A stretch of DNA of 64,000 bases from a plasmid: NCBI RefSeq assembly GCF_057098645.1, contig NZ_JBXSPU010000003.1. One strand, given 5' to 3'. Positions 26,201 to 29,200 of the stretch are shown in pieces (within the stretch, counting starts at the first letter, position 1; each line of letters starts with the position of its first letter). A program made the position numbers.

Positions 26201-29200
26201 TGCAACGCCCTCAGTATCAACACCTCTTGCTTCAATGTCCTTCAGAATATCTCTTACTGCATTTACAGAAAGAGCCTCCTGATTTCGTGGGTTCAGAGGG
26301 TGTACTGTGGTTTCCAGTTCCACCTTTTCCGCCGGAACAATGATGTGTTCCGCCTCAAGCTTCCGCCCATTGTGTAATGTAAAAAGTTTCTTCAGGCGTG
26401 GCTGACCTTTCAGGCCTTGAAGCCCGGAGCGATGGATTACTTCAGTACGCTTAGGCGCATTAATATAACGGGATTTGTCGTTCCCGATATGCTGCTCATC
26501 ACTCATACATTACCCCCTTGCTTCACTGAAAAACTCTTAATCTCATTAATAAATTGCTGGTAGACCGCCATCACGGATTCTTCGGCAACATCAAGCTGTT
26601 TGGGAGAGCAGAGCTCTTCTGATTTTTTGATATCCAATACGGTTCTACCCCTAGAAGCTGCGGCTTTAAACGCTTCTGAGTTTTTGATATTTGCAGACAT
26701 AAAGAGTTCCTGCACTGTCCTTACCAGTTTATCCAGGACAATCTTTTCATAGGGACTCTTATCGTCGACATTCACTGCCAACACTTTGAACCAGCTTAGA
26801 TTTTCGCCCTTGCTCGGCGATTGTTTGAATCGCTCACTGATCGTCAACATGAAATCAGTTGTTGAGGCATAATCATACTCACGAGGTGAAACGGCAACCA
26901 AAATGCCATCAGCAGCTTCATCCGCTGCCCATGTGATTGGCGAATCTTCTGGTGGAGTATCGATAATGATCAGGTCGTACTTGCTCTTCAAGACCGGCAG
27001 GATTACCTCTTTAAAACGTAGTAATAACTCAGTTCGTTCTTCTCTGGAACACTGCCAGTATTTATCTTTGAAACGTGCATCTGTAGGGAATGCGGTAATA
27101 ACATCAAGATTCGGAAGGTGTGTTGAAAAAGGCATACCTTCAATAATTTGTTCTTCCGAGTACCCTAAATCAAGATATTTTCTGTAATCTGAGTCTTCTT
27201 CGTAAACCCCTAAGATGGCGTCAATAGCAGTCAGGAAAACATCATCTTCCGCTACGCTCTGGATCATCCCGCTTCCAATAGACCCTTGTGGGTCCCATTC
27301 GATCAACAGTATCCGCGCGTTTAGATGCAAATCAAGTGCTGCCGCAACTGCAAGAACGCCTGAAGTTGTACTCTTCCCCGTACCACCCTTATGGTTCTGC
27401 GTTACGATTGTACGGCTACAGTAGAAGTCGCTATATCGAGGATAGTTCAGAGCATCCATTATTTTCTGGACATCCCAGCGGGTATAGAGATGGTTTTTGT
27501 TCTGGTAGATAGGAGCACCAACCAGTTCTTTTTCTTCAAGATCCGCTAAGATTTTGTTAAAAGTTACGCGAGATTTACCAAAAAAATCTGACAGATTTTT
27601 TTTATTCAAGCAGTGGTTATAGATTAGGCGATCAACACCGTCTACACTATCATCCGATACCGAAACCCTCGAAGAGACCAATAATGACTCTTTCAGAGAG
27701 ATCTGCTCGCTCTTCATGCGTTGACCGACAAGGGCGATCTTATCAATTAGATTCATTCTCTTCCGATCCCTTTTACCTAAATAGTGAAATTAAACGTATA
27801 TACGTAAACTTTACGCATAATGCGTATACTTTAGCGTTATGCGTTTAATAGTAACCTTAATTCTATTATTACGCTAACGTTCTGTATTCTTTTCTTAGAT
27901 TTTGGAATATCTGCATTATTGAATTTCAATTGGCAGTTGATTGAAGTCTTCCAAAAGCCTCTTAAGTATCAACAATACCAATCTTCCGACATAGCAGGAT
28001 CACTCCATAGATGTGGCAATAAGGGGGGTAAATCCCACGGTACCCGACCAGCATTACCCCATAGCCTGGCGATTAAGGGGGTTAAATGCCATGGTACGAG
28101 ACCAGCATTCCTCCATGGCCTGGCGATTAAGGGGGTTAAATGCCACGGTACCCGACCAGCTTCCCCATGGCCTGGCGATTAAGGGGGTTAAATGCCACGC
28201 TACGCGACCAGCTTCTCCATGGCCTGGCGATTAAGGGGGTTAAATGCCACGCTAAGCGACCAGCTTCCTCATGGCCTGGCGATTAAGGGGGTTAAATGCC
28301 ACGCTACGCGACCAGCTTCTCCATGGCCTGGCGATTAAGGGGGTTAAATGCCACACTACGCGACCTGCTTCCCCATAGCCTGGCGATTAAGGGGGTTAAA
28401 TGCCACGCTACGAGACCAGCTTCCCCATAGCCTGGCGATTAAGGAGGTTAAATGCCACGCTACGCGACCTGCTTCTCCATGGCCTGGCGATTAAGGGGGT
28501 TAAATGCCACACTACGCGACCTGCTTCCCCATAGTCTGGCGATTAAGGGGGTTAAATGCCACGCTACGAGACCAGCTTCCCCATAGCCTGGCGATTAAGG
28601 GGGTTAAATGCCACGCTACGCGACCAGCCTCCCCATGGCCTGGCGATTAAGGGGGTTAAATGCCACGGTACCCGACCAGCTTCCCGCCATGCTCTGGCGA
28701 TTAAGGGGGTTAAATGCCAGGATACGCGACCAGCATTCCCCATGGTCTGGCGAATAAGGGAGTTAAATACCACGGTACCTGACCAGCATGACCCCATGTC
28801 CTGGCGATTAAAGGATTAAATGCCACGCTACGCGACCAGCCTCCCCATGGCCTGGCGATTAAGGGGGTTAAATGCCACGGGACACGACCAGCTTTCCTCC
28901 ATGGTCTGGCGATTAAGGGGGTTAAATTCCATGGGACACGCCCAGCTTTCCTCCATGGTCTGGCGATTAAGGGGGTTAAATCCCACGGTACCCGACCAGC
29001 TTCCCGCCATGCTCTGGCGATTAAGGGGGTTAAATGCCAGGATACGCGACCAGCATTCCCCATGGTCTGGCGAATAAGGGAGTTAAATACCACGGTACCT
29101 GACCAGCATGACCCCATGTCCTGGCGATTAAAGGGTTAAATGCCACGCTACGCGACCAGCCTCCCCATGGCCTGGCGATTAAGGGGGTTAAATGCCACGG

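Follow-up and report, generated by a model that had tools for sequence, protein, structure and literature searches.

A block of five ACGYAT hexamers immediately ahead of the parA-parB genes of an IncHI plasmid is probably the autoregulatory operator of this partition operon, Par1. The block lies within a 64,000-nucleotide stretch of plasmid DNA (NCBI RefSeq assembly GCF_057098645.1, contig NZ_JBXSPU010000003.1) that we analyzed as a whole and refer to as the window. The plasmid is of the IncHI1 (R27) type, the window giving a 100% match to many conjugative Enterobacterales plasmids typed as IncHI1B(R27), and the operon and its upstream block are set in the Tra2 region. The start of parB overlaps the stop of parA, and the two genes are preceded by a conserved leader of 120 bp. 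All coordinates are window positions, and "sense" denotes the minus strand, the direction in which parA is read (Table 1).

Symmetry and conservation upstream of parA

A preliminary description of this DNA had placed a cluster of three palindromic elements at 27790-27850, 35-95 bp upstream of the parA start, and had proposed it as a candidate autoregulatory operator. We found all three elements there, at distances of 38-88 bp upstream from the ATG (27756). The first, ACGTATATACGT (27794-27805), is a perfect 12-bp palindrome with 6-bp arms, and the second, TACGCATAATGCGTA (27812-27826), is a perfect 15-bp palindrome with 7-bp arms about A27819. The third, TAGCGTTATGCGT (27832-27844), which had been called a related element, is an imperfect palindrome. 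The first two elements are bridged by a further perfect palindrome, CGTAAACTTTACG (27803-27815), and the block 27789-27849 as a whole forms a 61-bp imperfect palindrome that is 77% complementary and has an internal tandem period of 20 bp (19-20 bp in Tandem Repeats Finder).

These elements did not arise by chance. Among dinucleotide-shuffled versions of the 244-bp intergenic stretch, only 2.4% had two or more perfect palindromes with arms of 6 bp or longer, and the exact hexamer ACGYAT occurs five times in 160 bp, compared with 0.115 expected from its window-wide frequency, a count that none of 5,000 shuffles reached. A site for a global regulator was considered and rejected, the 13-mer ACGCATNATGCGT occurring exactly only once in the 64 kb and its five matches at two mismatches, versus 2.2 expected, being at chance level.

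In the sense direction, the hexamers follow one another as F1, F2, R1, F3, and R2. F1 and R1 form a perfect inverted repeat with a 20-bp spacer (F1-N20-R1, 27813-27844), and F2 and R2 form a second one with a single mismatch (F2-N20-R2, 27794-27825), which overlaps the first at an offset of 19 bp. The pattern ACGYAT-N14-32-ATRCGT was found only twice in the 64 kb, both times in this block and both times with a spacer of exactly 20 bp.

Table 1. Positions of the parA-parB operon, its proposed control elements, and neighboring features in the window
Feature	Position	Strand	Description
parB	25499-26506	minus	P1-type ParB, 335 amino acids, PF08775; presumed corepressor and centromere binder
parA	26503-27756	minus	Type Ia partition ATPase, 417 amino acids; N-terminal helix, winged helix-turn-helix, Walker domain; presumed repressor
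Candidate ParA operator, whole	27794-27844	minus	Five ACGYAT hexamers; contains the three palindromes described previously
R2 ATACGT	27794-27799	minus	-43 from ATG; right arm of inverted repeat 2
F3 ACGTAT	27800-27805	minus	-49 from ATG; left half of 12-bp palindrome; no partner 20 bp downstream
R1 ATGCGT	27813-27818	minus	-62 from ATG; right arm of inverted repeat 1; right half of 15-bp palindrome; ATGCGT or ATACGT in all lineages
F2 ACGCAT	27820-27825	minus	-69 from ATG; left arm of inverted repeat 2; left half of 15-bp palindrome; invariant
F1 ACGCAT	27839-27844	minus	-88 from ATG; left arm of inverted repeat 1; matched in all five IncHI sequences (ACGTAT in L005)
Proposed -10, TACTAT	27848-27853	minus	TACAAT or TAGAAT elsewhere; T1, A2, and T6 invariant at a fixed position
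Proposed -35, TTAGCG	27872-27877	minus	TTAGCT in IncHI2; 18 bp upstream of proposed -10
Tandem array 1	28020-29266	minus	52-bp units, 23.6 copies, each with CCCCTTAATCGCCA on the parA-sense strand; candidate parS
Tandem array 2	30068-30476	minus	54-bp units, 7.6 copies, same CCCCTTAATCGCCA motif
trhC	31094-33775	minus	Upstream of parA

For comparison, we fetched four diverged lineages, namely, an Enterobacter plasmid typed as IncHI1B/IncP (88% identity in this region), a Citrobacter plasmid (76%), and two IncHI2 plasmids (72%). The hexamer layout was identical in all four, and none of the IncHI1- or IncHI2-type loci that we fetched lacked the pair of N20 repeats offset by 19 bp. Within the hexamers, 26 of the 30 positions (87%) were invariant across four lineages, compared with 22-28% in the flanking intergenic DNA; over the whole block, 36 of 51 positions were invariant. 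F3 was the least conserved hexamer, reading ACGTAT, ACATAT, or ACGCAT depending on the lineage. The 7-bp linker between R1 and F3 (27806-27812; sense AAAGTTT; GTAAAGTTTAC) was also nearly invariant, whereas its counterpart between F1 and F2 was not; this linker could provide an extra contact, for example, for a wing in the minor groove or at an interface between dimers.

These data bear on what the recognition unit might be. One view is that each compact palindrome (the 12-bp, the 15-bp, and the imperfect third element) is the unit for a single ParA dimer, so that three dimers would bind at 19-bp spacing. Two of the palindromes are perfect, the period fits, and in the comparison of the window with L003 the 12-bp element has changed on both halves (from ACGTAT/ATACGT to ACGCAT/ATGCGT) and is still a palindrome. 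However, the 12-bp element is truly palindromic only in the window and L003; in L002 and L004 it reads ACATAT/ATGCGT and is nonpalindromic. In addition, the third element is conserved in one half only, that formed by F1, and the hexamers within a compact palindrome, 6-7 bp apart from center to center, are out of reach of one dimer of the P1 type, whose two winged helix-turn-helix (wHTH) domains have been modeled ~28 bp apart (Boudsocq et al. 2021, PMC8465637). We consider it unlikely that the compact palindromes are the units of recognition, and the comparison with more distant relatives described below points the same way.

ParA and the candidate operators of its relatives

The description of ParA as a type Ia protein with an N-terminal HTH extension was borne out by structure prediction. 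An AlphaFold2 model built on 27 family members (predicted local distance difference test score, 83) has a helix at residues 3-18, a disordered linker, helices at residues 43-47, 52-59, and 63-75, and a beta wing at residues 83-91, followed by the Walker domain; as modeled, the latter three helices and the wing are a three-helix wHTH. In Foldseek searches, the model gave full-length matches (~370-400 columns) to Vibrio cholerae ParA2 (7npe; template modeling [TM] score, 0.75-0.79) and P1 ParA (3ez2; TM score, 0.72-0.76), whereas short Soj-type ParAs aligned over only ~290 columns. A sequence search of solved structures likewise returned V. cholerae ParA2 first (E = 7.6e-33), followed by P1 and P7 ParA, so that ParA2, although it is encoded on a chromosome (chromosome 2), is the closest solved structure by both sequence and fold. 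Identity to P1 ParA is only ~23%, and BLASTP aligned ParA residues 62 onward (SRVTFNKILADLEE) with P1 ParA residues 53 onward. A Pfam search with ParA detected the ATPase core only.

We then compared the upstream regions of ParA relatives (45-89% identity), which were collected by a scan of representative genomes and by tblastn against plasmids. Between -120 and -50 from the ATG, every clade has a hexamer inverted repeat of its own, and the clades differ in this repeat as they do in the recognition-helix region of ParA. IncHI1 and IncHI2, with SRVTFNKIL in that region, have ACGYAT with N20; Klebsiella and Providencia, with SRNTF[ST][KR]IL, have GTGCAT with N22 (F at -95, F at -77, R at -67, and R at -49); and Xenorhabdus, with SRNTFSKIL, has GTGCAT with N24. 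In the plasmid-type relatives from Vibrio and Photobacterium, LSRVTFNTRI goes with TTAAACC-N24-26-GGTTTAA and LAPVTFQNRI goes with TGAAACGA-N22-TTGTTTCA (hexamer TGAAAC), while a Vibrio clade with GGSRPTFNKLI has TTTTACRTA-N22-TATGTAAAA and a Photobacterium clade with LSTKTFNKR[IV] has TTCCAC-N28-GTGGAA. Counted between core hexamers, the spacers of these Vibrio and Photobacterium clades (TTAAACC, TGAAAC, TTTTAC, and TTCCAC) are 26-28 bp.

By sequence comparison, the constant feature of the family is the long-range inverted repeat. Long-spacer inverted repeats recur in all clades, whereas the inner gap between hexamers, which equals the spacer minus the offset, varies from 0-1 bp here to 4 bp in Klebsiella and Xenorhabdus and 8-9 bp in F; both observations count against compact palindromes as binding units. 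The compact palindromes look instead like a by-product, because the inner half-sites of the two overlapping inverted repeats abut. The recognition units are thus probably overlapping long-range hexamer inverted repeats, two or perhaps three in number. The proposal that the cluster serves as an autoregulatory operator was supported by comparison, with conservation, covariation, and layout all arguing for it, but the compact palindromes that had drawn attention to it are probably not the elements that are recognized.

The arrangement has counterparts in characterized partition systems. At the F promoter, three ParA dimers bind overlapping hexamer inverted repeats; each dimer has been proposed to sit on hexamers 27-28 bp apart, with one repeat perfect, one degenerate, and one having a single good half, and the direct hexamers are separated by 13-bp intervals, which amounts to a 19-bp period (PMC8465637). 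Similar layouts have been described for P1 (TTATGC-N28) and P7 (ACGTGC-N29) (PMC8465637). The IncHI block shares with F (sopAB) the forward-forward...reverse-reverse order of hexamers, the 19-bp period, the overlap of inverted repeats of which one is perfect and the others are degenerate, and a third site with only one good half. It differs from F in the hexamer itself (CTTTGC in F), in the spacer, which at 27-28 bp leaves the inner half-sites of F 8-9 bp apart whereas here they abut, and in its position, since in F the operator covers the -35 and -10 elements whereas the IncHI block starts just past the proposed -10.

The ParA operator annotated in the P1 record extends from the promoter spacer to the parA ATG, and when we checked it we found TTATGC (648) and GCATAA (682) separated by N28, with the first hexamer 2 bp past the -10. 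In both the P1 and IncHI systems, ParA is of type Ia, with an N-terminal helix followed by a wHTH, and ParB is of the P1 type; the operator, a candidate in IncHI, lies between the promoter, which is proposed in IncHI, and the parA ATG, and its first hexamer is close behind the -10 (2 bp in P1 and 3 bp after the proposed element here). The two systems differ in hexamer (TTATGC versus ACGYAT) and spacer (28 bp versus 20 bp). In P7, the hexamer is ACGTGC, the first four bases of which resemble those of ACGYAT, and the overlapping inverted repeats are protected by ParA (PMC8465637), but the spacers are 26-29 bp and the third inverted repeat is displaced by 21 bp. The position ahead of parA-parB, the long-form ParA, the overlapping hexamer repeats, and the covariation of site and recognition helix are all those of a type Ia operator. 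In type Ib systems with an upstream centromere-operator (pB171 parC and TP228 parH), a short ParA lacking an N-terminal DNA-binding domain is paired with a small ParB or ParG that acts as repressor. The locus is unlike these in that its ParA has 417 residues and a wHTH and its ParB is a 335-residue protein of the P1 type.

Candidate centromere arrays and neighboring features

Farther upstream of parA, the motif CCCCTTAATCGCCA occurs 29 times at no more than one mismatch (28067-30415), compared with 0.18 expected, and all copies fall within two tandem arrays. The candidate centromere motif contains TCGCCA, the hexamer annotated as the B-type ParB site of parS in the P1 record, and the arrays are likely to be the Par1 centromere bound by ParB. 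With ~30 copies located upstream rather than downstream, they are unusual for a type Ia operon; in P1, parS is single and lies downstream of parB. The arrays are separated by ~800 bp of nonrepeat DNA (29267-30067) that holds only short open reading frames (66, 46, and 78 amino acids) and could be an insertion or a spacer.

Upstream of parA, CCCCTTNNTCGCCA is arrayed in every IncHI lineage, with a period of ~249 bp in IncHI2. In a Providencia plasmid (L007), a CCCCTTNNTCGCCA-type site flanks parAB as single copies, one on each side (2869-2882 and 5447-5460). Single related sites (AACAACCCCCTTGTTCGCCA or ...CCCCCATTGTCCCCA) precede the operator in the Xenorhabdus and Vibrio relatives, and a single related site (AACAACCCCCTTGTTCGCCA, or AACAACCCCCATTGTCCCCA in Vibrio and Photobacterium) lies upstream of parA in L014 (at about -160), L018, L024, L026, and L028. 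Because the non-IncHI relatives have single copies, the comparison suggests that a single ancestral parS was amplified into the arrays of the IncHI plasmids.

Two other candidates for parS or ParB sites were rejected. The palindromes ahead of parA lack the CCCCTTNNTCGCCA motif, the TCGCCA-containing motif being arrayed upstream of them instead. Two heptamers near the operator that resemble box A of P1, ATTTCAC (27784-27790, minus strand) and ATTTCAA (27922-27928), were dropped as ParB sites, not being conserved in IncHI2. The second of these is part of a perfect palindrome, ATTGAATTTCAAT (27918-27930), between the promoter region and the arrays, and the other IncHI lineages do not conserve the sequence around that palindrome. 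Of the perfect palindromes near the locus, the longest, AAAAAAATCTGACAGATTTTTTT (23 bp, 11-bp arms; 27580-27602), lies in the parA coding sequence for the HTH region (NKKNLSDFFGK) and may simply reflect runs of Lys and Phe codons.

Downstream of parB are four small co-oriented genes (hypothetical and lipoprotein), preceded by a metallophosphoesterase gene. Beyond the small genes lies a second partition module (parM). This region (23573-25315, plus strand, in the window; 3819-4853 in L001) confirms the double-par organization known for R27.

Proposed promoter and control of parA-parB

A promoter-like pair, TTAGCK-18 bp-TASWAT, is conserved directly upstream of the hexamer block, and the spacer between its two elements is not conserved (5 of 18 positions invariant). 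If these are the -35 and -10 elements, transcription would start at ~27841, inside F1. The sequence TAGCGT (27871-27876), which overlaps the -35 and lies 26 bp from F1, matches ATGCGT at four of six positions; it is a possible extra half-site, and its conservation could equally reflect the -35.

With such a promoter, the 61-bp imperfect palindrome would be largely transcribed, and the symmetry might then act as RNA or DNA structure, such as a leader hairpin or a cruciform affecting translation, stability, or termination. However, the predicted leader folds no better than shuffled sequences (minimum free energy, -13.4 kcal/mol; z = -0.23), and Rfam gave no match. Moreover, it is the individual hexamers that are conserved and not the outer arm formed by the third element, and the widely spaced hexamer inverted repeats of the relatives, with their unconserved spacers, have the signature of protein sites. 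A structural role for the symmetry is therefore extremely improbable.

We favor repression by ParA. In the scheme we propose, ParA dimers would contact the ACGYAT hexamers through their two N-terminal wHTH domains, one dimer on F1-N20-R1 and another on the overlapping F2-N20-R2, and the weaker F3 may seat a third; judging from P1 and F, ParA would do so in its apo or ADP form. As the first hexamer begins 3 bp after the likely -10, bound ParA would cover the transcription start and early leader and so block initiation or promoter escape, and ParB would strengthen repression through ParA. Here we infer where the promoter lies and that it is ParA that binds, as well as the stoichiometry, the dependence on nucleotide, and the effect of ParB.

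Several points weigh against this scheme. All IncHI lineages have a spacer of 20 bp, compared with 26-29 bp in F, P1, and P7, which sets the hexamers ~2.5 helical turns apart, and a P1-like dimer may not fit them without more bending; the range of 26-29 bp comes from three examples and may not be a defining trait of the ParA-operator family. A sigma-70 consensus and terminator scan of 27600-28100 gave no promoter and no terminator, so that the promoter is drawn from conservation only, and the proposed -35 is weak, with three of six matches to the consensus. The HTH of ParB also differs between clades, and since parA and parB are inherited together, covariation alone is no proof that the hexamers are bound by ParA and not by ParB. 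Finally, we found no experimental binding, footprint, reporter, or transcription start study of IncHI parAB in the literature that we reached. Nor was a ParA operator or a centromere of IncHI plasmids described in the literature searched, which did not take in the study of R27 partition by Lawley and Taylor (2003), where the repeats may be described.

Given that covariation cannot separate the two proteins, the hexamers might be bound by something other than ParA, either ParB as a direct repressor (type Ib, KorB-like) or another plasmid regulator. In several partition systems the centromere-binding protein is indeed the repressor. However, ParB has a better candidate target in the CCCCTTAATCGCCA arrays, which leaves the hexamers for ParA, and the TCGCCA motif, in 29 copies upstream here, is kept in IncHI, Providencia, and Xenorhabdus despite their differing operator hexamers. 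ParB also has a P1-type C-terminal domain (PF08775), the wHTH of ParA is intact, and the layout mirrors that of known ParA operators. With respect to other regulators, expression of R27 parA and parB is high at 25°C as well as at 37°C and does not depend on the transfer regulator HtdA (PMC7366339). This independence of HtdA and temperature counts against an outside regulator and fits self-contained control. A binder other than ParA is, in our judgment, very unlikely.

IncHI1 and IncHI2 plasmids are vehicles of multidrug resistance in Salmonella Typhi and, among Enterobacterales from livestock, of mcr-1 or tet(X4). Being very large and of low copy number, IncHI plasmids rely on active partition, and in well-studied systems stable inheritance needs the correct dosage of ParA and ParB, which is set by autoregulation. 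A known operator would offer a defined target for destabilizing IncHI plasmids and a basis for predicting par-mediated incompatibility. As a regulatory device it is an ordinary one and leaves the understanding of partition control unchanged, while adding a short-spacer, phylogenetically footprinted example with covarying relatives to a model that has so far been based on F, P1, and P7. More tentatively, and with slightly less than even confidence, we suggest that the IncHI operator is a short-spacer variant of the type Ia operator, in which a ParA dimer bridges hexamers 20 bp apart and the half-sites of neighboring dimers abut and mimic compact palindromes. If this is true, the family forms a natural series in which the hexamer tracks the recognition helix and the spacer runs from 20 to 28 bp. 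Such a series would directly test the model of a flexible wHTH and three cooperative dimers, and a recognition code describing ParA specificity, and thereby regulatory cross-talk among coresident plasmids, might be derived from it.

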